Shown: positions 32,211 through 41,477 of the stretch, piece by piece
How positions within the stretch are numbered: the stretch's first letter is position 1
How the letters are laid out: each line of letters opens with the position of its first letter
DNA from: a virus
Reading direction: 5' to 3' (one strand)
Length of the DNA: 64,000 nucleotides
Virus record (IMG/VR): IMGVR_UViG_3300044961_000667
Translations under genes and position numbers: made by a program
The notes under the pieces: generated by a model
What the model saw: the letters and a program-made list of their open reading frames with translations, nothing else
Database searches by the model: none
What the model was told of the DNA's origin: nothing

Positions 32211-32620
32211 ACGACGATGGGTTCTTTCAGCATGGCAGTTGGCACAAACAACCTCGCACTTCGCCAACTCCATTCTCACATCTTCCTCTGAACGGGCGTG
32301 GTTGACCATCCTCGACACGTCGTCTTGCTTCGTTCCCCTGACGTGATCAAACTGCATCACCCACGGCCCATACTGATGGCCACAGTCCGTACACGGCGTC
32401 GTGCTCTTGATCTCGTTGGCGATCTTGCGAAGCGTTTCACGCTTGATCGACTTGTACGCCCTGTTCTTGTCGACGTACTTCTGGTGATTGGAGCGGTAGT
32501 GCTTTCGCGAACCCTTCTGCATGCACACCCGACATCGCGAATGCCGCAGCGTCGGCTTCCTCTTCCAGTTGAAGTCGTCCTCTGACTTGAACCGTTCGCA
32601 TCCGGAGCACCACTTCTGAA

Positions 32621-32696
32621 CGCCCCCGGCGGGAATCGAACCCGCAACCCGTTCGCCTGTAGTCGGCGACAGCTCTGCCAGTTGAGCTACGGAAGC
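32621..32696 (-). tRNA. Intact tRNA-like gene with non-canonical loop GACUACA (central triplet CUA; identity undetermined)
   Basis: Cloverleaf with normal D and T arms; A33, C37, 3 extra nt. Confidence 0.75.
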
Positions 32697-32711
32697 ATCT
32701 TCCACATCATC

Positions 32712-32758
32712 TCCGTCCACCTGTAGTCGGCGGTTGCTCGCCTATGAGCTACGAGGGC
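32712..32758 (-). pseudogene. 5' part of split tRNA-like gene (same GACUACA loop)
   Basis: GCCCTCG TA GCTC ATAGGC GAGC AA CCGCC GACTACA GGTGG ACGG. Confidence 0.8.
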
Positions 32759-33046
32759 CTGTTCCAACCTGAGGAGATCGTAACTCCTGCAGGAGTTTCG
32801 TCAAGTGACTGACTGCGCCGGCTCCTTGCAGTCGATGCAGTAGCCGCACGAGCCGCACCGGTACTTCACCCAAACGCCCTGCACCTTCGACACCCCCGCC
32901 GAGCGTCCGTCCTCCTGGCGCGTGATGCCAGGCTTCTTGCACTGCGGGCAGATGCCTTGCTTCAGCTTCTCGTCGATCTGCTGACTCCATTCCTGGATGG
33001 CAGCGACAACGTCCTGAGGCGGCTCTTTCACTTCTCCTCCGTACCA

Positions 33047-33426
33047 TGGAGCTGCGGGGAATCGAACCCCGGTCCGAAAGCCTTCAGTCCTTCGACTCTA
33101 CGTGCGTAGCCGCTGTCACCGCGGCCGAGTCCTGCTGCCCGCTGGTCTTTCCCCGCATTCGCCGAGCGGACTGGGCGGGGGCAACTCCTGGGTGGGTTTC
33201 GCCTCGCCAGCTACGCAGGAGCGCCTCGCTGGTTCGACGGAGAGCTAAGACTTTCGGTCCGCTCTCAAGCCCTGATCAGGGCAACCGCTCACGCGGCTGC
33301 GAGCATCGGGGCCGCCTCGACGTTGTCGTTGGCGGTTGTGGTTTCTCACTGGGATTTACGAGCACAGCGAGCTGCTCGGCACGCATCTCAGGTCGTCTTT
33401 GCCCCCGTCGAATCCAGTTCAGCCCC
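33047..33426 (-). ncRNA. ssrA: tmRNA; tag peptide ANDNVEAAPMLAAA
   Basis: 5' GGGGCTGAACTGGATTCGAC, 3' GGTTCGATTCCCCGCAGCTCCA, G3-U70; tag frame 33333-33289. Confidence 0.95.
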
Positions 33427-33806
33427 GTTCACTGCTTCCTTCAAGCAACGGCGATAGGCGCCCGTGCCGAACATCCGGTCGGTGCGCCCAACGCAGGGAG
33501 TTGTGGTCCCCCGCATCGCCGTCCTCATCATCTCGCGCGTCGGTGTCGCCTGCACTTTTCGCACTGGCCCGTGCTGTCGAACACGCACAGCTCCTGATTC
33601 ACACCGCATCCCACGTACTGCGCGACCGAGTCGACGCGGAGCTGGGCTTCGTGGCCGCTCTCACGCGAGTCCGCTGCTCTCTGCGACTGCTCGTTCTGCG
33701 TCATGGGGGTGCGCCTTCTGTTCTTGGTCGAACTGACTGTCAAGATCATCAATGACACCAGTGGACAGTGTTCGTCAAGGGGAACCGGACAGCAGCGACA
33801 GTTTCT

Positions 33807-33872
33807 CGACCCGTCCAGGAGTCGAACCCAGCACCACGCCCTTAGAAGGGGCCGGCGGATCCATCACGGGCC
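33807..33872 (-). tRNA. tRNA-Arg(UCU), D arm reduced (66 nt)
   Basis: GCCC CTTCTAA GGGC; T arm and acceptor intact. Confidence 0.7.
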
Positions 33873-33885
33873 TCAACAACAACAG

Positions 33886-33970
33886 CGGAGCGCCCGAGAG
33901 TCGAACTCGGCTGACCCGTGAAGGTCGTCGCGTTAGCAGTGCGATGCCGTCCCACGCTGGCTCACGCTCC
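33886..33970 (-). tRNA. tRNA-Ser(GCU)
   Basis: Loop CTGCTAA, long V arm, G73. Confidence 0.9.
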
Positions 33971-33973
33971 ATG

Positions 33974-34061
33974 CGGAAAAGGCGAGAGTCGAACTCGCAG
34001 ACCGCCCGAAGACGATCGTCCGCTTTCCAAGCGGGTGGGCTCACCAGTGCCCAGCTTCTCC
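33974..34061 (-). tRNA. tRNA-Ser(GGA)
   Basis: Loop TTGGAAA, long V arm. Confidence 0.9.
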
Positions 34062-34064
34062 ATG

Positions 34065-34153
34065 CGGAGCGGGTCCGAGTCGAACGGACAGCCCGCCTTT
34101 CGACGAGCAAGCGCTTTCGAGACGCTCTGACTTGCCTGTGTGCAAACCGCTCC
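34065..34153 (-). tRNA. tRNA-Ser(CGA)
   Basis: Loop CTCGAAA, long V arm. Confidence 0.9.
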
Positions 34154-34249
34154 AGAAACACCCTCAGATGACCGCCTGAGGGGCGCGGGGGCCTGTTGGC
34201 CGAGATGCCCCTAGCTGTCGCCAGTTCGTGAGCGTCTCGGGACGGCTTG

Positions 34250-34336
34250 CGGAAGACGGAGGACTCGAACCCCACACCCACTCGGGGTGCCGACCGCTTT
34301 CAAGGCGGGCCAGCGTCCATCACTGGTTCATCTTCC
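34250..34336 (-). tRNA. tRNA-Ser(UGA)
   Basis: Loop CTTGAAA, long V arm. Confidence 0.9.
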
Positions 34337-34337
34337 A

Positions 34338-34667
34338 TCACTGCGATCGCGGCTGATCGGCGTTCCAGACGGAGCGGCCCATCGCTCCCTCATCGGCCTC
34401 AGCGTTCTTCAACATCGAGTAGTAGTCCGGTCGCTCCTTCAGGTGCGCCCAGGCGATCTTCCCGATGTCGAGCAGGTCGTCAACCACGTCGGTCTCCGGG
34501 TCGACGTCATGCTCCGACTCAACCCCGAGACCGGCCGCGAACTCTCCGAGGTCGACCTGGCTCCAGTCGATCCCCAGCTGGTCGCCAACCCACTTCGCCA
34601 GCTCAGGGCTCCATGCCGGCGCCTCGCCGACCTCTTCCTTCAGCTGCCTGACGAGCTTCCTGAGCAT
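34338..34667 (-). CDS. DUF5661-like protein
   Basis: GIDW...EFAAGLGVESEH...KIAWAHLKERPDYYSML. Confidence 0.75.
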   Translation of the reverse strand: MLRKLVRQLKEEVGEAPAWSPELAKWVGDQLGIDWSQVDLGEFAAGLGVESEHDVDPETDVVDDLLDIGKIAWAHLKERPDYYSMLKNAEADEGAMGRSVWNADQPRSQ

Positions 34668-34707
34668 GCGGTGGCCTCCGGGCGCACAGTACACCCAGAG
34701 GCCACCC

Positions 34708-35250
34708 TCAGTCTTCCAGCTCGGTGTTCCAGTACGCCACCGAGGCGAGCCACTGCTTCCACGGCTCGGGCATGCCCTTCTTCCAGGTGAAGGTGAGCCG
34801 CACCGACTCGGGCAACGACTTCGGCTTCACCGGCACCTGCAGGAGCTTCATGCCTGCCTGCGCTGGCGTCCGACCGCCCTTCTTCTGGTTGCAGGGCGTG
34901 CACGACACCACGATGTTCTCCCACGTCGTGTGGCCGCCCTGCGTGCGCGGGACGACGTGGTCGTACGTGAAGTCGTGCCTGGGCACCTTCGCCGAGCAGT
35001 ACTGGCACTTGCCCTTGTCTCGCGTGAAGACGTTCTCGCGACTGAACTTGATCGCCTTCTTCTTGCCGCGGATCGCCCGGAGGAACCGGATCACCGACGG
35101 CACCTTGAACTCCAACGTCATCGAGCGGACGGTCTTGTCCTCGTACTCCTCGACGACTTCCACCTTCTCCTCCCAGAGGAGGGTGATCGCCCGTTGCCAG
35201 CTCACGCGGGCAACCGGGGTGTAGCCAACATCGAGCACCAGCGTTTCCAC
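34708..35250 (-). CDS. HNH endonuclease (McrA-like)
   Basis: TLVLD..Y.P...WQRAI...PSVIR...SRENVFTRD...CQYC...DHVVPR.QGG.TTWEN...C..CN. Confidence 0.9.
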   Translation of the reverse strand: METLVLDVGYTPVARVSWQRAITLLWEEKVEVVEEYEDKTVRSMTLEFKVPSVIRFLRAIRGKKKAIKFSRENVFTRDKGKCQYCSAKVPRHDFTYDHVVPRTQGGHTTWENIVVSCTPCNQKKGGRTPAQAGMKLLQVPVKPKSLPESVRLTFTWKKGMPEPWKQWLASVAYWNTELED

Positions 35251-35288
35251 GTTGCCCGTCCTTTCTGCGGCCTTCGCCGCGGTGAGTG

Positions 35289-35373
35289 TAGTCCCGGCCG
35301 GACTCGAACCGGCACGGCCTTTGTGGCCACTGGGGTTTGAGCCCAGCGCGTCTACCGACTCCGCCACGGGACC
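35289..35373 (-). tRNA. tRNA-Leu(CAA)
   Basis: Loop CTCAAAC, long V arm. Confidence 0.9.
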
Positions 35374-35378
35374 ATCTG

Positions 35379-35467
35379 TGCTCGGGGCGAGACTCGAACT
35401 CGCATGAGGCTTTCGCCCCACCGGCTTCTGAGGCCGGCGTGTCTACCGAAGGTTCCACCACCCGAGC
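35379..35467 (-). tRNA. tRNA-Leu(CAG)
   Basis: Loop CTCAGAA. Confidence 0.9.
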
Positions 35468-35478
35468 ATGCACTTCAG

Positions 35479-35565
35479 TGGTCCGGGCGAGAGTCGAACT
35501 CGCATGATCTTTCGATCGGCAGGCTCTCAACCTGCTGTGTCTACCGGAGGTTCCACCACCGGACC
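35479..35565 (-). tRNA. tRNA-Leu(GAG)
   Basis: Loop TTGAGAG. Confidence 0.9.
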
Positions 35566-35569
35566 AAAG

Positions 35570-35642
35570 TACCCGCTCTCGGAATCGAACCGAGCCCTCC
35601 GCCTTGTGAAAACGGCGCTCTCACCAGTTGAGCTACGCGGGC
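35570..35642 (-). tRNA. tRNA-Val(CAC)
   Basis: Loop TTCACAA. Confidence 0.85.
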
Positions 35643-35645
35643 ATG

Positions 35646-35717
35646 TCGTGAGCCTGGGAGTCGAACCCAGCTGGGCGGATTATGAGACCGCTGCCTTCCC
35701 TCGATGGCTTGCTCACG
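35646..35717 (-). tRNA. tRNA-Met/Ile2(CAU)
   Basis: Loop CTCATAA. Confidence 0.85.
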
Positions 35718-35720
35718 GAG

Positions 35721-35793
35721 TAGCAGGGGCTGGGATCGAACCAGCGTTCTCCAGGTTATGAGCCTGGCGAGATGACCTCTTCTCCACCCTGCA
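35721..35793 (-). tRNA. tRNA-fMet-like (CAU)
   Basis: Loop CTCATAA; unpaired 1:72. Confidence 0.85.
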
Positions 35794-35794
35794 G

Positions 35795-35868
35795 TACTCC
35801 CGGAGGGACTCGAACCCCCAGCCTCTTCGTTCGTAGCGAAGCGATCTGATCCGTTGATCTACGGGAGC
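35795..35868 (-). tRNA. tRNA-Arg(ACG)
   Basis: Loop CTACGAA. Confidence 0.9.
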
Positions 35869-35880
35869 ATCAAACAACAG

Positions 35881-35954
35881 CGGTCTCGGCGGGACTCGAA
35901 CCCGCGGCCTTTCGCTTCGGAGGCGAACGCTCTCATCCACTGAGCTACGAGACC
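35881..35954 (-). tRNA. tRNA-Arg(CCG)
   Basis: Loop CTCCGAA. Confidence 0.9.
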
Positions 35955-35956
35955 AG

Positions 35957-36029
35957 CGTTCCCGGAGGGACTCGAACCCCCGACTTCTCCGTTAGGACCG
36001 GAGCACTCTTCCAACTGAGCTACGGGAAC
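35957..36029 (-). tRNA. tRNA-Arg(CCU)
   Basis: Loop GTCCTAA. Confidence 0.85.
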
Positions 36030-36035
36030 ATCCTG

Positions 36036-36106
<71 letters not shown>

Positions 36107-36505
36107 TCAACCAACCACGTACTTCTCAGCCAACTTCACACCGGACTTCTGACCGTTCTTGGCAGGCTCGACCCGAAGCTGCCCGCCAACGGCCCCAACC
36201 TCCTCGACCGGGACCAGATACACCGCATCCAACTCTGGGCAGTGGACGCCGAAGAACTCGACCTCACCGCGGTACGACTTTCTCCCAGTCCCTCGGTGAG
36301 CCGAGTTGCTGCTGGTGTCGAAGACAACCGCTCCATTCTTGAGCCGCCCAGTCTTGCACTGCACTCGCTGGAACCCGGCATCAGTGTCGATCACCAGGTC
36401 GTAGCGCTGGTTCTCTCCAATCGGGAGCAGCACCGTCCTCCCGGTCTTGAGCAACGCCGCCATCACCGCACCCTCTGTTCTCGTCCCCTGCGCCTTGGTG
36501 TTCAT
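36107..36505 (-). mobile_element. PD-(D/E)XK endonuclease (group I intron-associated type)
   Basis: G...E......LLP.GENQRYDLVID...RVQCKTGR...Y.GEVEFF. Confidence 0.85.
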
Positions 36506-36520
36506 GCTCCACATCTACCA

Positions 36521-36567
36521 CACCGCTCGGACACCAGCCGAGTGCTCTGCCTTCGAGCTGCGGGGGC
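36521..36567 (-). pseudogene. 5' fragment of tRNA-Thr(GGU), no T arm
   Basis: GCCCCCG CA GCTC GAAGGCA GAGC A CTCGG CTGGTGT CCGAG CGGTG. Confidence 0.85.
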
Positions 36568-36571
36568 GCTG

Positions 36572-36644
36572 TGGATCTGGCCGGACTCGAACCGGCAACC
36601 TTCTGCGTGCAAAGCAGCCGCTCTCCCATTGGAGCTACAGACCC
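36572..36644 (-). tRNA. tRNA-Ala(UGC)
   Basis: Loop TTTGCAC, G3-U70. Confidence 0.9.
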
Positions 36645-36649
36645 TTCAG

Positions 36650-36722
36650 TGGAACCGGCGGGACTTGAACCCGCCACCTCTCGCATGCGAAGCGAGCGCT
36701 CTCCCAGATGAGCTACGGCCCC
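36650..36722 (-). tRNA. tRNA-Ala(CGC)
   Basis: Loop TTCGCAT, G3-U70. Confidence 0.9.
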
Positions 36723-36727
36723 AGGTG

Positions 36728-36798
36728 TGCGCGAGCAGGGAGTCGAACCCTGTCGTCTCCCGCGTCGGGGGAGTGCTCTACCGGTGAGCTACACGCGC
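36728..36798 (-). tRNA. tRNA-Val(GAC), C33
   Basis: Loop CCGACGC. Confidence 0.85.
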
Positions 36799-36887
36799 AT
36801 GGGCAGGCGGTGCTTTCGCCGAGCTGCCAGCAGTCACCACGTTCGTGACCCCGGCCCTGCTCGGTAGACTGCCACCTCTCCTGCTTG

Positions 36888-36960
36888 TGGACCCGGCGGG
36901 GATCGAACCCGCTACCTCTCGCATGCCATGCGAGCGCTCTCCCAAGTGAGCTACAGGCCC
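36888..36960 (-). tRNA. tRNA-Ala(GGC)
   Basis: Loop ATGGCAT, G3-U70. Confidence 0.9.
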
Positions 36961-37052
36961 TAAGCGAGGCAGTTCGTAACGCTGCCTGCCCGGCTTTCCA
37001 CCGGCGCGGGTTGATCAGACCCACGAGACTTGCCCGGAGCGACCGGGCCATG

Positions 37053-37125
37053 TGCCGTCCCTCGGAATCGAACCGAGATCCTCCGCTCTTCAGGCGGGTG
37101 CATGGACCACCACTGCCAAGACGGC
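37053..37125 (-). tRNA. tRNA-Phe(GAA)
   Basis: Loop CTGAAGA. Confidence 0.9.
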
Positions 37126-37134
37126 GTACTTCAG

Positions 37135-37206
37135 CGGACCCGAACGGAATCGAACCGTCCTCGCCGGCGTGACAGGCCGGTCGCCTCACCAGATGCGTAC
37201 GGATCC
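37135..37206 (-). tRNA. tRNA-Asp(GUC)
   Basis: Loop CTGTCAC, G73. Confidence 0.9.
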
Positions 37207-37211
37207 AACAG

Positions 37212-37294
37212 GGCGACTGGAGAGAATCGAACTCTCACTGAGCTTTCGCTCGCGGGGTCACAACCCGCTGGGAACCCATTTCCCATCAGCCGCC
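37212..37294 (-). tRNA. tRNA-His(GUG) with long variable arm
   Basis: Loop TTGTGAC; G-1:C73; V arm GAGC-GAAA-GCTC. Confidence 0.85.
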
Positions 37295-37302
37295 AGAAGA
37301 AA

Positions 37303-37422
37303 TCTGCTCCACCCGAGTGAGGAAGGCATGAAACGGGTTTGAACCGTCTGGTCGATTTAGCAGATCGACTGATCACCAAGATCAGTAGTGCGTGTGAGCC
37401 ATCCTCGGCCGGGTGGTGCAGA
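37303..37422 (-). ncRNA. tRNA-mimic RNA (D, anticodon and T arms on a long imperfect stem)
   Basis: GATC TTGGT GATC / GTCGAT CTGCTAA ATCGAC / ACGG TTCAAAC CCGT inside TCTGC..CCACCCG..GAGGA terminal stem. Confidence 0.65.
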
Positions 37423-37423
37423 G

Positions 37424-37495
37424 TCCGCCGCAGTGGAATCGAACCACTTGCCTCTCGCTTATCAGGCGAGTGCTCTTCCAGTGAGCTACCGGCGG
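37424..37495 (-). tRNA. tRNA-Ile(GAU)
   Basis: Loop CTGATAA. Confidence 0.9.
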
Positions 37496-37504
37496 GCACG
37501 TCAG

Positions 37505-37578
37505 TCAGGGTGGCTGGGATCGAACCAGCGACCTCCTGCATCCGAAGCAGGCGCGCTACCAGGCTGCGCTACACCCTG
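37505..37578 (-). tRNA. tRNA-Pro(CGG)
   Basis: Loop TTCGGAT. Confidence 0.9.
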
Positions 37579-37588
37579 TTGAGTCAAG

Positions 37589-37625
37589 TCAGGTCGGCTG
37601 GGATCGAACCAGCGATCTCCTGCAT
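37589..37625 (-). pseudogene. 3' half of split tRNA-Pro(GGG)
   Basis: AT GCAGG AGATC GCTGG TTCGATC CCAGC CGACCTG A. Confidence 0.9.
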
Positions 37626-38035
37626 CACCAGACGTGGTCACTGGCCAGCAGGATGTTCTTCTTGGCCCCATTCGCGGGGGCCTCCAATCTCACATGCAGG
37701 ATCGACTTCCCCTGGAACTCCTCAGGCAGGAAGGCCGTCACCACGTCCATCTCAGGCAGATACACCAGAAGCAGGTCAACCTCCCCGACCTCATACTTCT
37801 TGAACGACTTGTTGCTCGGTCCCACCCACGTCCTCAGAGCCACAGTCGCCACGCCGGACGAATGAGACGACTTGCCGCCTCCATACTTCGCTTGGGCCCG
37901 GATCAACCTAACACCATCATCCAGAACCAGATCGTACCTGGCATCGGTTGTGGGCCGACTGACGACAAACCCCTTCTCAATCGCCCTCTGCTGCGCCTTC
38001 AGCGATGCCACTTCACCCTTCTGCCTGGTGTCCAC
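37625..38035 (-). mobile_element. PD-(D/E)XK endonuclease inside split tRNA-Pro
   Basis: KGE......GFVVSRP...RYDLVLD...RAQAK...Y...EVDLLLVY. Confidence 0.85.
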
Positions 38036-38066
38036 TTCTCTTGCGTACCACACAGGAGAACATCTG

Positions 38067-38138
38067 TCGAAGAGACTGGACTCGAACCAGCATCCTCACG
38101 GCCCCCAGCCGTGCGCTCCACCATTGAGCTACTCCTCG
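38067..38138 (-). tRNA. tRNA-Pro(GGG), intact copy nested inside the split gene
   Basis: Loop CTGGGGG. Confidence 0.9.
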
Positions 38139-38143
38139 TCACG

Positions 38144-38178
38144 CCCGAGCAGGCGCGGTACCACTCCGCTACGACCTG
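38144..38178 (-). pseudogene. 5' half of split tRNA-Pro(GGG)
   Basis: CAGGTCG TA GCGG AGTGGTA CCGC G CCTGC TCGGG; pairs perfectly with the 3' half. Confidence 0.9.
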
Positions 38179-38182
38179 AAAG

Positions 38183-38254
38183 TCTGGAAGGCGGGGATCG
38201 AACCCGCGACCTCTCGCGTCCAAGGCGAGCGCCCTACCGCTGGACTACTTCCAG
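38183..38254 (-). tRNA. tRNA-Pro(UGG)
   Basis: Loop CTTGGAC. Confidence 0.9.
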
Positions 38255-38438
38255 TTGTGCAATCGATTGCGTTCAAAACTGTGCAGTGCGGACTGGCGGT
38301 TTGCACCCGCTGCACCGCATTGTCGGCCTGGCCTCAATAGGCCGCACGGTCCCACGCCGTCGAACGCCAGGACCTGCACCAACCACCGCCATGTTCGACC
38401 TGCCAAGCGGTGCCCGTTCATGCCGGGATGCTGCACAG

Positions 38439-38510
38439 TACCCCGTACGAGAATCGAACTCGTTTCGCTCGCTTGAAGGGCGAGGGGCCTAACCAATGGC
38501 CGAACGGGGC
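38439..38510 (-). tRNA. tRNA-Glu(UUC), C33, intact copy downstream of HNH
   Basis: CTCGC CCTTCAA GCGAG. Confidence 0.85.
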
Positions 38511-38845
38511 TTCTCTGCTCGATCATGCGTCCTCTGCCGATGACAGTTGGCGCAGACCACTTCACATTTCTCGATCTCGGCTACGACCTTCTCAGGTCCG
38601 ACACCGTGCCTCTTGAACTGCCCCAGGCTGAACTCCTTCCGACCCCTGACGTGATCAAAGTCCATCACCCATGGCGGATAGGCGACACCGCAGTCCGCGC
38701 ACGGCCTGGACTTGGCTTTGTCGATGATCGCCTTGATCGTCTCTTTGTAGGCCGCTGCCGCTCTGATGTACGAGATCTTGTTCTTCTCGTAGTGCCTGCG
38801 GCTGTACTCGGCCTGCTTCGACTTCGACGGCTCTCTGAGCGGCAT
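38489..38845 (-). mobile_element. HNH endonuclease, paralog of 32178-32705
   Basis: PCADCG...VMDFDHVRG...KCEVVCANCHRQRT; last codons overlap tRNA-Glu. Confidence 0.9.
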
Positions 38846-38872
38846 TCTTCGTCATACCACTTGACGAACCTT

Positions 38873-38924
38873 TCGTCACTCCACCTTGAAAGGGTGTCGG
38901 CCTCACCTGAAGCACCAACGGGGC
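38873..38924 (-). pseudogene. 5' fragment of tRNA-Glu(UUC)
   Basis: GCCCCGT...CACC CTTTCAA GGTG, then AGTG ACGA and breaks off. Confidence 0.8.
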
Positions 38925-38929
38925 TGAAG

Positions 38930-39000
38930 TACCGCGTACGGGTGTCGAACCCGTCTCACTGGGCTGAGAACCCAGGGACCTCCCGGAAGTCGAACGCGGC
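38930..39000 (-). tRNA. tRNA-Glu(CUC)
   Basis: Loop TTCTCAG. Confidence 0.9.
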
Positions 39001-39006
39001 TTGAAG

Positions 39007-39079
39007 AGGCGGAGGCGGGAGTCGAACCCGCTCGATGTCGGTTTTGCAGACCGATGCCTTCCCAGTTGGCTACTCCGCC
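39007..39079 (-). tRNA. tRNA-Cys(GCA)
   Basis: Loop CTGCAAA, U73. Confidence 0.9.
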
Positions 39080-39101
39080 AGGGAAAGACGAGACTGTGCA
39101 C

Positions 39102-39458
39102 ATGAAGCGCGTGCTGTGCCTTGATGACGACGACATGGTGGCCCGGCTCATCGCCGAGGTGGTCGAGTTCTGCGGACACGAGCCCGTTCGAGAGAGCGAC
39201 CCGCTGAAGGCTTCCTCGGACCACCTCCACGACCGGAAGATCGCTGCGGTGCTCACCGACTACATGATGCCTCGCCTCGATGGCGTCGACGTTCTGGTGG
39301 TCTGGCAGGAGTCTCGACCCGAGGTGCGCCGAGTGCTGATCACCGCGGCCCCGAACGAGCCGGCGGTGAAAGAGGCCCTCCGCACCGGCGTCGCTCAGAT
39401 GGTGATCGCTAAGCCTCCGACGATCGCCGACATCAAGATGGCCCTGGCCTGGCTCTGA
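39102..39458 (+). CDS. Single-domain response regulator (CheY-like receiver)
   Basis: VLCLDDD, TDYMMPRLDG, LITA, IAKP. Confidence 0.9.
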   Translation: MKRVLCLDDDDMVARLIAEVVEFCGHEPVRESDPLKASSDHLHDRKIAAVLTDYMMPRLDGVDVLVVWQESRPEVRRVLITAAPNEPAVKEALRTGVAQMVIAKPPTIADIKMALAWL

Positions 39459-39459
39459 G

Positions 39460-40023
39460 CTACCGCTTCTTCCTCGCCAGTCGCTCCTCCAGCTGCTGAA
39501 CCGACATCTGGATGGAGTCGTTGATCGACCGCATCATGTCCTGCCGGAGCTTGTACTCCAGCTCCTGCAGCTTCTTGTCGGAGGCGTCCTTCGACTCCTT
39601 CTCGCGCTGGCGGTAGTACTCACCCTGTTTCTCGATGCGCTGGTCCACCGCCTGCCGGATCTCCGAGACCGTTCCCTTCATGGCCTCGATGGCCGACAGC
39701 ACCTGCTTCATCTCGGTCTGAACGTTGCCGACCGACTTGTCGATACCGGCCAGGGCGTCGCTCTGCTCGTCGAACTTGTCGTCGTGCTCGTCGAGCCGCT
39801 CTTCGGTCTTCTGCTTGTCCTTGTCCTCGCGGTCGACCGTCCGCGAGCCCAGCCACTTGACGAAGCCAACGACGGCTCCGATCAACTGGGTGACGACTGC
39901 TGCTCCGACCAGCAAGTACAGCCCGGTCAGCCCGTCACCTGCTGGCGCTGGCGGTGGGGTTGCTGCTGCGGCTCCTGCCGCCGCCGCCGCCGCCGGGCCC
40001 GCCGCCAAGATCAACAGGTTCAA
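39460..40023 (-). CDS. Single-TM coiled-coil membrane protein
   Basis: Hydrophobic segment followed by heptad repeats. Confidence 0.7.
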   Translation of the reverse strand: MNLLILAAGPAAAAAAGAAAATPPPAPAGDGLTGLYLLVGAAVVTQLIGAVVGFVKWLGSRTVDREDKDKQKTEERLDEHDDKFDEQSDALAGIDKSVGNVQTEMKQVLSAIEAMKGTVSEIRQAVDQRIEKQGEYYRQREKESKDASDKKLQELEYKLRQDMMRSINDSIQMSVQQLEERLARKKR

Positions 40024-40026
40024 GAA

Positions 40027-40383
40027 CTACTCCTTGCTCGACAGATCGTCGTCGTCGTCGGGCTCTTCAGAGGGCACCGCCGACACCGGAGTCGCTGGCG
40101 GGAGGTTCACCTGCAGCTTGGCCGCAATGGCGTCCACCACCTTCGACGTGTGCCGGCTTTCCATCTGCATCGACATCATCAGCTTCTCGCCTCGGAGCGT
40201 GCGCTCGTCGACATGCTTCACGGCGGTCTTCAGTGCCGCCAGGTCCTCGCCGAAGCCGGCCATTTTGGACCTCATCTCGTGCATGTCCTCTTCGAGCTTT
40301 GCCACTCGCGAGGCCAGGCTGATGGCCGTCGGCTTCCGCTTTCTTGGGGCCGTACGGAGGCCCCTCCCTCTGGTGTCACGCAA
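40027..40383 (-). CDS. Coiled-coil hypothetical protein
   Basis: ORF with acidic tail. Confidence 0.65.
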   Translation of the reverse strand: MRDTRGRGLRTAPRKRKPTAISLASRVAKLEEDMHEMRSKMAGFGEDLAALKTAVKHVDERTLRGEKLMMSMQMESRHTSKVVDAIAAKLQVNLPPATPVSAVPSEEPDDDDDLSSKE

Positions 40384-40492
40384 AGTCGCTCTCCGAAGAA
40401 GCGGTCCACGGTCGTGGTTCTCTCACGGCCTGCTGTTGGTTGACTGCTCCATCTTTCGCCCTCTTCTGGGCATCCGTCAACTGTCACTGATG

Positions 40493-40567
40493 CGTACCCT
40501 CTCGGAATCGAACCGAGCACCGTCGGCTTAACAGGCCGCTGCTATCAACCAGACCAGCTCAGGGCAC
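40493..40567 (-). tRNA. tRNA-Asn(GUU)
   Basis: Loop CTGTTAA, G73. Confidence 0.85.
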
Positions 40568-40573
40568 ATCGTA

Positions 40574-40644
40574 CTGGGGAGGAAGGGATCGAACCTTCTC
40601 CGTCGGCTTCAGAGACCGCTGCGCTACCCTTGCGCCACTCCCCA
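40574..40644 (-). tRNA. tRNA-Gln(CUG)
   Basis: Loop CTCTGAA, U1-A72. Confidence 0.9.
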
Positions 40645-40656
40645 ATGTCTTTCGCT

Positions 40657-40722
40657 CAGGGGCCCTGGGAATCGAACCCAGCTCGTCGGCTTCAAAGGCC
40701 GACTCACTCCCTGAGTACCCCT
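40657..40722 (-). tRNA. tRNA-Gln(UUG), miniature D arm (66 nt)
   Basis: Loop CTTTGAA; D arm CTCA-GGGAG-TGAG. Confidence 0.7.
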
Positions 40723-40727
40723 CCATG

Positions 40728-40799
40728 AGCGGGTGGCGAGGATCGAACTCGCGCATCCTGGGTTGGAAGCCCAGAGCCTTTCCGCTTGGCTACACCCGC
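40728..40799 (-). tRNA. tRNA-Gly(UCC)
   Basis: Loop CTTCCAA, U73. Confidence 0.9.
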
Positions 40800-40802
40800 A
40801 TG

Positions 40803-40873
40803 TACCGCCGCTGGGGATCGAACCCAGTCCCTCCGCTTAAAAGGCGGTTGCTCTACCCTTGAGCTACGACGGC
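40803..40873 (-). tRNA. tRNA-Lys(UUU)
   Basis: Loop CTTTTAA. Confidence 0.9.
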
Positions 40874-40912
40874 GCGTGGACCTGCGCCGTCGCGTTTCAT
40901 CTTCGTCTTCAT
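40853..40912 (-). CDS. Candidate Lys-rich regulatory mini-ORF MKTKMKRDGAGPRAVVAQG
   Basis: AAGGAG-6 nt-ATG; runs into tRNA-Lys(UUU). Confidence 0.55.
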   Translation of the reverse strand: MKTKMKRDGAGPRAVVAQG

Positions 40913-40930
40913 CGTCGTCTCCTTGTCGAG

Positions 40931-41018
40931 TGGTGGGAAGGCTCGGAGTCGAGCCGAGCTGGGACGCAATGCCACCCGCTTTACAGGCGGGCCACGAGCC
41001 CTACGTGTCTACCTTCCC
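40931..41018 (-). tRNA. tRNA-Tyr(GUA)
   Basis: Loop CTGTAAA, V arm, encoded CCA. Confidence 0.9.
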
Positions 41019-41021
41019 ATG

Positions 41022-41092
41022 AGCGGCATCCGGGAATCGAACCCGGTTCAGTGGCCTGGCAGACCACGGCCCAACCAATAGACCAATGCCGC
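41022..41092 (-). tRNA. tRNA-Gly(GCC)
   Basis: Loop CTGCCAG, U73. Confidence 0.9.
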
Positions 41093-41174
41093 ATACGGCT
41101 TTGTCGCTGACGGCCGCGCAGATCCTCGTGCGGAATGCACGAAGGACTGAACGTCTGCCGGCGACAGAAGCCAG

Positions 41175-41245
41175 TGGGCCCTGAGGGGATCGAACCCTCT
41201 CCTGACGCTTAAGAGGCGCCTGCTCTACCCTTGAGCTAAGGACCC
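41175..41245 (-). tRNA. tRNA-Lys(CUU)
   Basis: Loop CTCTTAA. Confidence 0.9.
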
Positions 41246-41295
41246 AGATTCGGCCAGCCCGACTAGACGTCAGACAGGTGGCCGAACTGTCGCTG

Positions 41296-41316
41296 CTATC
41301 CAGTTTTCAGAGAACA
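41296..41316 (-). promoter_or_regulatory. rrn-type boxA-like antitermination site
   Basis: TGTTCTCTGAAAACTGGATAG. Confidence 0.6.
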
Positions 41317-41325
41317 GAACTGCGA

Positions 41326-41399
41326 AGCACCAGGTCGGGCTCGAACCGACGACCTGCGGTTTACGAAACCGCTGCTGCTACCTGCTGAGCTACTGGTGC
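41326..41399 (-). tRNA. tRNA-Thr(CGU)
   Basis: Loop TTCGTAA. Confidence 0.9.
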
Positions 41400-41403
41400 A
41401 CTG

Positions 41404-41477
41404 CACGGCGAGCAGGAGTCGAACCTGCAGCGTCGGGTTTTGGAGGCCCGTTCCCTTCCCGTTGGGGACTTCGCCGT
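41404..41477 (-). tRNA. tRNA-Trp(CCA)
   Basis: Loop CTCCAAA, G73. Confidence 0.9.

Follow-up and report, generated by a model that had tools for sequence, protein, structure and literature searches.

A probable intron-free homing cassette splits a tRNA-Pro gene of a presumed phage and carries a complete second tRNA-Pro

Homing endonuclease genes are thought to survive in essential genes only by means of self-splicing introns or inteins, and otherwise to lie between genes. I-Ssp6803I is the founding homing endonuclease of the PD-(D/E)XK type. It is encoded in a group I intron of the tRNA-fMet gene of the cyanobacterium Synechocystis PCC 6803 and is described as "specific for the anticodon region" (PMC1995217), and it acts as a tetramer on a 23-bp pseudo-palindromic site (PMC3384342). 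The family of I-Ssp6803I (PF11645; structure 2OST) is the one homing-endonuclease family known to target the tRNA anticodon region. Here we describe a gene of this family in the virus record IMGVR_UViG_3300044961_000667, of which a stretch of 64,000 nucleotides (nt), called the window below, was analyzed. The gene is part of a 518-bp cassette that interrupts a tRNA-Pro(GGG) gene (the resident) between tRNA positions 36 and 37 and that also contains a complete second tRNA-Pro(GGG) gene (the passenger). We think it probable that this is an intron-free homing cassette with a replacement tRNA, nested in the resident gene and polymorphic among phage genomes.

The cassette resembles the I-Ssp6803I intron in that the protein family and the fold are the same, the host is a tRNA gene, the anticodon loop is the site of insertion, and the interrupted gene contains the nuclease gene (PMC1995217; PMC3384342). 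It differs in having no ribozyme, in destroying the host tRNA rather than leaving it to be restored by splicing, and in that the nuclease travels with a complete second tRNA; furthermore, its host is a phage tRNA array and its target is tRNA-Pro. SegB, a GIY-YIG endonuclease of phages T4 and T6, is encoded in the T4 tRNA cluster, moves by intronless homing, reads a T-stem-loop motif in DNA, and spreads the surrounding tRNA genes (PMC2330249; PMC2988022; PMC13096335). Like SegB, the window nuclease is encoded by a gene free of introns and inteins among phage tRNA genes, has tRNA-coding DNA as its presumed target, carries neighboring tRNAs along, and is present in some related phages and absent from others. 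However, the two enzymes are of different families, and whereas SegB lies between tRNA genes and cuts at a distance, the window cassette lies inside its presumed target, leaves both halves as exact stubs, and has the spare tRNA as part of the inserted unit.

Two other systems are comparable in mechanism. The endonuclease genes known as mORFs, described from the mitochondrial atp6 gene of the fungus Allomyces macrogynus and from atp6, atp9, cox2, and nad3 of Glomus, enter a gene without an intron and bring a foreign copy of the part that they displace, leaving the native piece as a dead remnant (PMC3630166). An mORF replaces the C terminus of a protein in frame and so creates a hybrid, whereas the window cassette supplies a whole RNA gene and both native halves are remnants. 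The window thus has the native remnants and a diverged copy (52 of 73 bases in common) without a hybrid, and the analogy is one of mechanism, not of membership. Collaborative homing (PMC3984707) is similar to what we found at three other loci (L016, L023, and L024), where a relative of the window nuclease lies upstream of an intron-bearing tRNA-Asp gene, so that the carrier's site is interrupted by an element that restores function. In the window, in contrast, it is the nuclease cassette that interrupts the site, and a second gene, not splicing, would restore function. Among open-access papers and preprints we found homing endonucleases linked to tRNA clusters, but no report of a nuclease gene that lies within a tRNA gene and is accompanied by a complete spare tRNA, and none of a general link between PF11645 and tRNA genes.

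The split gene and everything inside it are on the minus strand. The 5′ stub of the resident (38144..38178; 35 nt; tRNA positions 1 to 36) consists of the acceptor strand, the D arm, the anticodon-stem strand CCTGC, and the loop bases TCGGG, the last of which are the anticodon GGG. The 3′ stub (37589..37625; 37 nt; tRNA positions 37 to 73) has AT and GCAGG at its start, followed by the variable region, T arm, acceptor strand, and discriminator as far as 37589. Both stubs were delimited by the sequence, by rejoining them, and by contig joints found in nature. When they were joined by coordinates, ARAGORN found a 73-nt tRNA-Pro(ggg) with all stems perfect and the loop TCGGGAT. When it was allowed long introns, the program recovered the split gene itself with a 518-nt "intron," placing the cut two bases earlier and reading the anticodon as GTG.

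The cassette (37626..38143; 518 bp, from the joint of 37625 to 38144) is made up of a spacer, the passenger tRNA, a second spacer, and the nuclease gene. The first spacer, read directly from the sequence, is the 5-nt CGTGA (38139..38143), which separates the 5′ stub from the passenger; the GTGA with which it ends is repeated at the other end of the cassette (37628..37625). The passenger (38066..38138; ARAGORN; Rfam RF00005, 61.2 bits) is a complete tRNA-Pro(GGG) with the anticodon stem CACGG/CCGTG and the loop CTGGGGG. It has the usual U33 together with G37, where the resident has C33 and A37. Because the anticodon is the same, the passenger is an isodecoder of the resident and not a different isoacceptor. 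The nuclease gene (37625..38035) encodes 136 amino acids (aa) from a GTG at 38035; its longest open reading frame (ORF) starts at 38053. From the passenger it is 12 nt to the first in-frame GTG (38053) and 30 nt to the GTG at 38035. The ORF ends TGG TGA, and the final A of the stop codon (37627..37625) doubles as the first base of the 3′ stub. In total, only about 35 nt of the insert are outside the tRNA and the ORF.

The anatomy of the locus agrees in all points with the initial annotation, which was made by a model from the letters of the window; the difference between resident and passenger at positions 33 and 37 is new. That annotation placed the break at position 36/37, where the natural joints (37625/38144) also place it, and predicted that the halves would rejoin into a perfect cloverleaf with the loop TCGGGAT, as ARAGORN found. 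Its insert of roughly 520 nt is exactly 518 bp, and its 5-nt spacer, its complete and diverged tRNA with the same anticodon, and its PD-(D/E)XK gene with a TGA overlapping the junction were all confirmed.

The product of the nuclease gene matched Pfam PF11645 (PDDEXK_5) with an E value of 2.7e-22 and 79.7 bits, versus a cutoff of 26.1 (residues 8 to 140 on profile positions 2 to 135 of 138), and its sequence matched the chains of I-Ssp6803I in PDB 2OST with an E value of 1.2e-4. An AlphaFold model was built from seven sequences (predicted local distance difference test, pLDDT, 84; predicted template modeling score, pTM, 0.80). The top four fold matches to this model in the PDB, and the only strong ones, were the four 2OST chains (E = 2.5e-8; template modeling score, TM, 0.74 to 0.77 for the match and 0.65 to 0.77 when all four chains are listed; probability 1.00), and the next was EcoRV (E = 2.8e-3). 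Residues D41, Q54, and K56, at the YDLV.D and QxK positions, are invariant in the seven-sequence alignment and align with YDLVFD and QVK of 2OST; we take the D of the first motif and the QxK positions to be the catalytic residues. The homologues start at the residue that is encoded at 38035 in the window, and all end with a tryptophan (W) followed by the stop codon. By its sequence, its modeled fold, and its motifs, the nuclease is assigned to the I-Ssp6803I family. A tRNA anticodon arm encodes a pseudo-palindrome like the site of I-Ssp6803I; that of the resident is CCTGC...GCAGG.

The initial annotation had suggested a search for empty alleles, and they were found. A search of public sequencing runs listed 24, of which 20 had part of the region 36800 to 39200; 8 of these were compared with the window over 36500 to 39500. 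Contigs in seven of the eight (X5, X7, X8, X9, X10, X12, and X13, from seven studies) join 37625 to 38144; what they omit is exactly 518 bases, and the joint is ambiguous by 1 base. On its shorter side the joint has 29 letters in X5 and 49 to 255 in the other six runs, and in X7 the joint sits in a 123.7-kb contig; the eighth run, X15, had no contig across the site. In their flanks these contigs agree with the window at about 99% of positions or more (in one case, 4 differences in 1,357 nt). The filled allele is also present in X5, in a 577-nt contig (37597 to 38173) that has the whole cassette and 29 to 30 nt of each stub. This contig stands beside the empty joint (depths, 11.5 and 18.1), and the pair looks like the picture of an assembly bubble formed by two coexisting alleles. 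In addition, the protein database holds a 136-aa protein (P0001) that is 99% identical to the window nuclease. Exact-word scans for relatives and empty alleles gave no matches, either with a 32-mer and a 30-mer among viral contigs or with a 24-mer of the 5′ stub among metagenome contigs.

Because the uninterrupted sequence is a perfect tRNA and the junction is without a repeat, the 518 bp are an insertion, which is the derived state and is polymorphic in nature. Only one base is common to the two sides of the junction, which argues against a deletion between repeats. The sharp-edged presence or absence, in near-identical genomes, of a nuclease gene that is in neither an intron nor an intein is a feature of intronless homing.

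The cassettes of X5 and the window differ by 8 substitutions in 518 bp, all of them transitions and all inside the nuclease ORF. Seven are synonymous third-position changes and the eighth is a conservative change of V to A. Since 36% of the possible transitions in the ORF are synonymous, seven of eight has a P value of 0.004, a pattern that shows purifying selection on the predicted nuclease gene. Between the same two sequences the flanks have only 5 differences in 1,886 nt (Fisher P = 0.002), which puts the divergence of the cassette at about six times that of the flanks. These results suggest that the cassette has its own history and a working gene.

We tested whether relatives of the nuclease also occur at tRNA genes. 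A search of viral contigs with the single protein yielded no confirmed relative, but a scan with an alignment found 74 loci in metagenomes and 4 in viral contigs, and tblastn added 2 named phages, for a total of 80 loci. The distinct loci number 73, and for 67 of them the sequence downstream of the nuclease gene could be assessed. At 50 of the 67 a complete tRNA gene on the same strand starts between −20 and +47 nt from the stop codon, and at 7 others an orphan T arm lies no more than about 60 nt from the stop codon. We read the orphan T arm as a tRNA 3′ stub beginning in the anticodon loop at L025, L037, L048, L050, and L053 (all proline) and at L067 (serine); the seventh such locus is L076. 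The remaining 10 loci were scored by the script as having no tRNA downstream. Among these, however, the tRNA gene is cut by the contig end at L006, is a tRNA-Asp gene with a group I intron at L016, L023, and L024, lies 28 nt past the alignment end at L072 and L075, and is at +68 at L079; only L038, L056, and L059 have nothing downstream. In the genome of Streptomyces phage Forrest the nuclease gene ends 7 nt before a tRNA-Asp gene, and in that of Synechococcus phage Sf-FR1 it lies between tRNA-Arg and tRNA-Val, overlapping the latter. Among 14 loci in bacterial genome assemblies of five phyla, a complete tRNA gene directly follows the nuclease gene at 13, and the fourteenth looks like the intron type. 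ARAGORN with long introns allowed was also run on the 80 loci, but it returned mostly chimeras of adjacent tRNAs, which were excluded from the counts.

At several of these loci the ends of the tRNA fragments could be placed precisely. The 42 nt that follow the nuclease gene of L050 are identical to the sequence from position 34 to the end of the intact tRNA-Pro(CGG) of L071, and 38 of the 39 nt that follow the gene of L025 match the 3′ part, from about position 37, of another type of tRNA-Pro(CGG). Upstream of the gene of L056, 36 of 38 nt match the first 36 positions of the L071 tRNA, stopping at G36. The order at L056 is a 5′ stub, 22 nt, a complete and diverged tRNA-Pro(CGG), 114 nt, and the nuclease gene, which is the layout of the window without the 3′ stub. 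At L067 the order is a complete tRNA-Ser(GGA), 64 nt, the nuclease gene, and a serine-type 3′ stub with its start at the anticodon; this stub overlaps the stop codon, as it does in the window. No 5′ stub was found for L067, L025, or L050, and these are one-sided cases. Judged from these fragments, a break at or beside the anticodon appears to be a trait of the nuclease family, and a spare tRNA with the same anticodon appears to have been picked up at least three times.

For a tree we used 64 rows, the window and 63 of the 73 distinct loci; 10 partial or unlabeled loci (L007, L040, L054, L060, L068, L070, L071, L073, L074, and L076) were left out. The clades of nucleases correspond to the type of tRNA that they adjoin: the tree requires 17 label changes, versus 42.4 when the labels were shuffled. 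Clades with good support are those at Gly(CCC), Arg(GCG), Asp, and bacterial Pro(CGG). The window nuclease falls in an unresolved group with other enzymes that are adjacent to tRNA-Pro genes, and its nearest relatives are all beside tRNA-Pro genes.

Some further features of the relatives were seen. The bacterial loci (L081 to L094) have the nuclease gene flush upstream of single tRNA genes (Pro, Asp, Arg, Gly, and Ala), and the labels of their assemblies include Acidobacteriota, Capsulimonadaceae, Tepidisphaerales, Woesebacteria, and Solirubrobacterales, among others. In the Gly(CCC) group of bacterial relatives there is a TTGACA-like box between the stop codon of the nuclease gene and the tRNA. 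At L016 (194 to 866), L023 (3001 to 3700), L024 (1192 to 1886), and L093, a free-standing relative lies directly upstream of a tRNA-Asp(GTC) gene with a group I intron in its anticodon loop, which was found by Rfam in the first three (67 to 77 bits) and by eye only in L093; this layout is like that of collaborative homing, at a tRNA gene. In the same type of tRNA-Pro(CGG), the 5′ stub ends with G36 (L056) and the 3′ stub starts with C34 (L050). If these ends came from the same kind of event, the anticodon would have been duplicated, which fits a 3-nt staggered cut; the window has no such duplication. In a viral contig, L078, a phage tRNA array includes a bacterial-type RNase P RNA (2121 to 2499; RF00010, 165 bits), which precedes the nuclease homologue by about 500 nt. 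Two candidate features were dropped. A conserved noncoding stretch upstream of the bacterial relatives at tRNA-Pro(CGG) genes (L025, L037, L038, and L048) was considered as an intron, but Rfam found no group I intron in the 19 loci searched; and a 10-nt identity between the left junction of the window and L037 falls in a region common to L037 and L038 and was attributed to chance.

In the homing that we propose, the nuclease would recognize and cut, during coinfection, the anticodon stem-loop DNA of an uninterrupted resident gene. The break would then be repaired from the genome that bears the cassette, with the tRNA halves and the neighboring tRNA-Pro genes as homology arms, and the 518 bp would be copied in. 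The left arm would include tRNA-Pro(UGG) (38182..38254, minus strand; ARAGORN; Rfam, 66.3 bits), which is 3 nt upstream of the 5′ stub. The insertion would split the presumed recognition site, making the carrier safe from its own enzyme and destroying the resident tRNA. The passenger, which has a different anticodon stem and matches the resident at only 10 of the 22 positions that surround the insertion point, would be spared by the nuclease and would take over the reading of CCC and CCU. We infer the cleavage, its site, the immunity of the passenger, the compensation, and the origin of the founding insertion. Intron-free homing is favored because of the anatomy of the locus, its polymorphism, the enzyme family, the purifying selection, the lack of an intron, and the habit of the family of residing at tRNA genes. 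In the initial annotation the element was said to destroy a tRNA gene and to replace it with an isoacceptor. That it is a mobile element which breaks a tRNA gene and brings its own is supported by the empty alleles, the nuclease family, the purifying selection, the lack of a group I intron signal, and the layouts of L056 and L067; "isoacceptor" has to be replaced by "isodecoder," as the anticodon is the same.

Several results weigh against this proposal. With regard to the co-conversion of flanking markers, the window differs from all eight runs at 37500 and 38244, which lie 125 and 100 nt away from the insertion, but X5, which also has the filled form, shows only the common bases there, unphased with its filled allele. 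That the cassette is in only one of the eight runs also fits an old insertion that is undergoing loss. Many rows of the tree are near-copies, and the clustering of labels is partly due to vertical descent. The gene for tRNA-Pro(CGG) (37504..37578, minus strand; ARAGORN) begins 10 nt downstream of the 3′ stub. No other paralogue is closer to the resident, with which it has 63 of 75 bases, the anticodon stem, and the T arm in common, and it is a candidate near-cognate site. Of the 22 positions that surround the insertion point, it agrees with the resident at 19, compared with 13 for tRNA-Pro(UGG). Yet tRNA-Pro(CGG) is intact in the window and in every contig that covers it, and so the enzyme either discriminates among loop bases or has a site other than the one presumed. 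With its unusual C33 the resident may be a poor or dispensable tRNA, in which case compensation would be unneeded. A clean foreign insertion with no target bases lost or duplicated is atypical of illegitimate break repair, and the founding event is hard to explain. Finally, no origin was found for the passenger: a 26-mer had no matches among genome contigs and viral contigs, and the best tRNA in the fetched loci shared 59 of 73 bases. The 5′ flank of the passenger resembles the junction, W-stop and then tRNA-Pro, of relatives such as L029. Together with the terminal GTGA, this is a loose clue that the cassette may have been cut out of a tandem arrangement of nuclease and tRNA genes.

Of the other explanations, the one that survives best, although we consider it unlikely, is that the cassette is a stranded relic of one old insertion, its nuclease inactive or repurposed, and that its presence or absence reflects lineage sorting or recombination among related phages. 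Its occurrence in only one of eight runs is in favor of this, as is the difference of 1.5% between the two known copies, which shows that the insertion is not of very recent date. Many bacterial relatives likewise look fixed beside one tRNA gene, for example, the Gly(CCC) clade of 18 rows with near-constant spacing. However, seven of the eight substitutions between the two copies are synonymous, the reading frame is intact in both, and the motif positions are invariant. The sixfold greater divergence of the cassette compared to its flanks also fits movement between genomes better than codescent.

Somewhat less likely still is that the tRNA is the cargo that matters. The passenger would be the better tRNA-Pro(GGG), or would escape a host nuclease that attacks anticodon loops, and the endonuclease would mainly exclude the markers of competing phages. 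The rare C33 of the resident versus the canonical loop of the passenger is in favor of this, as are the reports that SegB spreads the surrounding tRNA genes (PMC2330249) and that SegB-linked phage tRNA genes are amplified against a tRNA-cleaving defense (PMC13096335). But a beneficial cassette should be common, and seven of the eight runs have the empty allele; moreover, C33 occurs in two other tRNAs of the array and so may be normal for this phage. This explanation is in any case compatible with homing, to which it merely adds a benefit.

We regard it as very improbable that the insert is an intron, with 518 nt spliced out and the halves ligated so that the resident tRNA is still made and the passenger is a bonus. 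Position 36/37 is in the anticodon loop, which is where bacterial tRNA group I introns, including that of I-Ssp6803I, are found (PMC1995217; Williams 2020 preprint), and the nuclease relatives at L016, L023, and L024 adjoin tRNA-Asp genes with such introns. An Rfam covariance search that detected those introns with 67 to 77 bits had no match to Intron_gpI (RF00028) at an E value of ≤1 in 36500 to 39500 of the window. The approximately 35 nt that are neither tRNA nor ORF leave no room for a ribozyme core. In tRNA group I introns, U or rarely C precedes the 5′ splice site and G is the last base of the intron (Williams 2020 preprint), whereas in the window the base before the insert is G in both registers of the joint, and the last base of the insert is G or T. 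Lacking both the core and the splice-site features, the insert is judged not to be a group I intron.

Run X8, which is from an RNA library, has a contig with the joined form, as would be expected of a spliced product. However, the same joined form is present in DNA runs (for example, in the 123.7-kb contig of X7), and X8 has no contig over the cassette; the X8 joint is the empty allele and is not evidence of splicing. It is also textbook knowledge that RNase P acts at tRNA 5′ ends, and cleavage at that of the passenger would be expected to sever an intron-containing precursor. The protein-spliced tRNA introns of archaea and eukaryotes have a bulge-helix-bulge at their splice sites, a canonical position of 37/38, and a dedicated splicing endonuclease; the window insert is at 36/37. 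A split tRNA, with halves made as separate RNAs and paired via the acceptor and anticodon stems as in some archaea, is hardly credible. The halves do have the full complementarity that a tRNA requires, but neither leader nor trailer sequences with additional complementarity are evident, the nuclease mRNA has the 3′ half fused to its end, and we know of no split-tRNA system in bacteria or phages.

If intron-free homing with a replacement tRNA is correct, the cassette represents a third route by which a homing endonuclease gene can live in an RNA gene, which is to break the target and bring a replacement that the enzyme should not recognize. The mechanism would explain why nuclease genes, duplicated isodecoders, and tRNA fragments are found in phage tRNA arrays, and it would make such nucleases a force for the horizontal replacement of tRNA genes. 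The PD-(D/E)XK homing family would widen from one cyanobacterial intron enzyme to a broad group that is tied to tRNA genes. Genome context would allow the natural target sites, in the anticodon-arm DNA of tRNAs for proline, aspartate, arginine, glycine, lysine, and serine, to be deduced, a help to studies of specificity. For annotation, the warning would be that orphan tRNA halves beside small nuclease genes are scars and not sequencing errors or introns. More tentatively, and with rather less confidence than we have in the cassette itself, we suggest that I-Ssp6803I-family nucleases in general are specialists for tRNA anticodon loops in phages and many bacterial phyla, with a spare, uncuttable tRNA in place of the intron strategy. 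They might then drive the turnover of tRNA repertoires, both in phage arrays and at single-copy bacterial tRNA genes, and the intron-borne, intron-adjacent, tRNA-adjacent, and nested-with-spare layouts might be stages of one cycle.

The window is taken to be a portion of the genome of a large uncultured phage. It has a G+C content of 64%, encodes tail-fiber-like proteins, and contains a minus-strand array (32620 to 41477) in which ARAGORN found 38 tRNA genes and a transfer-messenger RNA (tmRNA) gene. When the region 37300 to 38500 was compared with 50,697 phage records by megablast, no near match was found. A distant-mode search of the same records gave only ordinary tRNA-Pro similarity to the part with tRNA-Pro(CGG) and the 3′ stub; the passenger was unmatched.

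A second cassette that splits a tRNA gene was seen at 38438 to 38930 on the minus strand, 300 nt upstream of the first. Its gene (38845..38489) belongs to the HNH families of PHROG and lies between a 5′ stub of tRNA-Glu(TTC) (about 38926..38879), which ends after the anticodon arm, and a complete tRNA-Glu(TTC) (38510..38438), of which it overlaps the first 22 nt. A low-depth contig in X9 (depth, 2.3; side, 30) joins 38462 to 38879 with three other letters, and this joint can be read from the sequence as an uninterrupted tRNA-Glu made up of the stub and the T arm. The HNH cassette thus seems to bring a new 5′ two-thirds of the tRNA-Glu, which would make it closer to the hybrid type of the mORFs. 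Run X15 has a strongly diverged copy of the HNH region (36 differences in 674 nt).

The array has at least three endonuclease genes; one of them is an ORF with an HNH motif (34708 to 35421, minus strand) directly after two tRNA-Leu genes, both of which are overlapped by its longest reading. In three tRNAs of the phage, C33 takes the place of the near-universal U: Val(GAC) (36727 to 36798), Glu(TTC) (38438 to 38510), and the resident Pro(GGG). ARAGORN also reported a "tRNA-Pyl(cta)" at 32620 to 32697, whose loop, with A33, is aberrant and which may not function as a suppressor. Two other intervals of the array vary among the runs. At about 37210, between tRNA-Asp and tRNA-His, contigs of X7 and X10 have about 100 bases more than the window, an indel polymorphism, and between tRNA-Ala(GGC) and tRNA-Phe a low-depth contig of X5 has 40 other letters in place of the 129 bases at 36918 to 37048.

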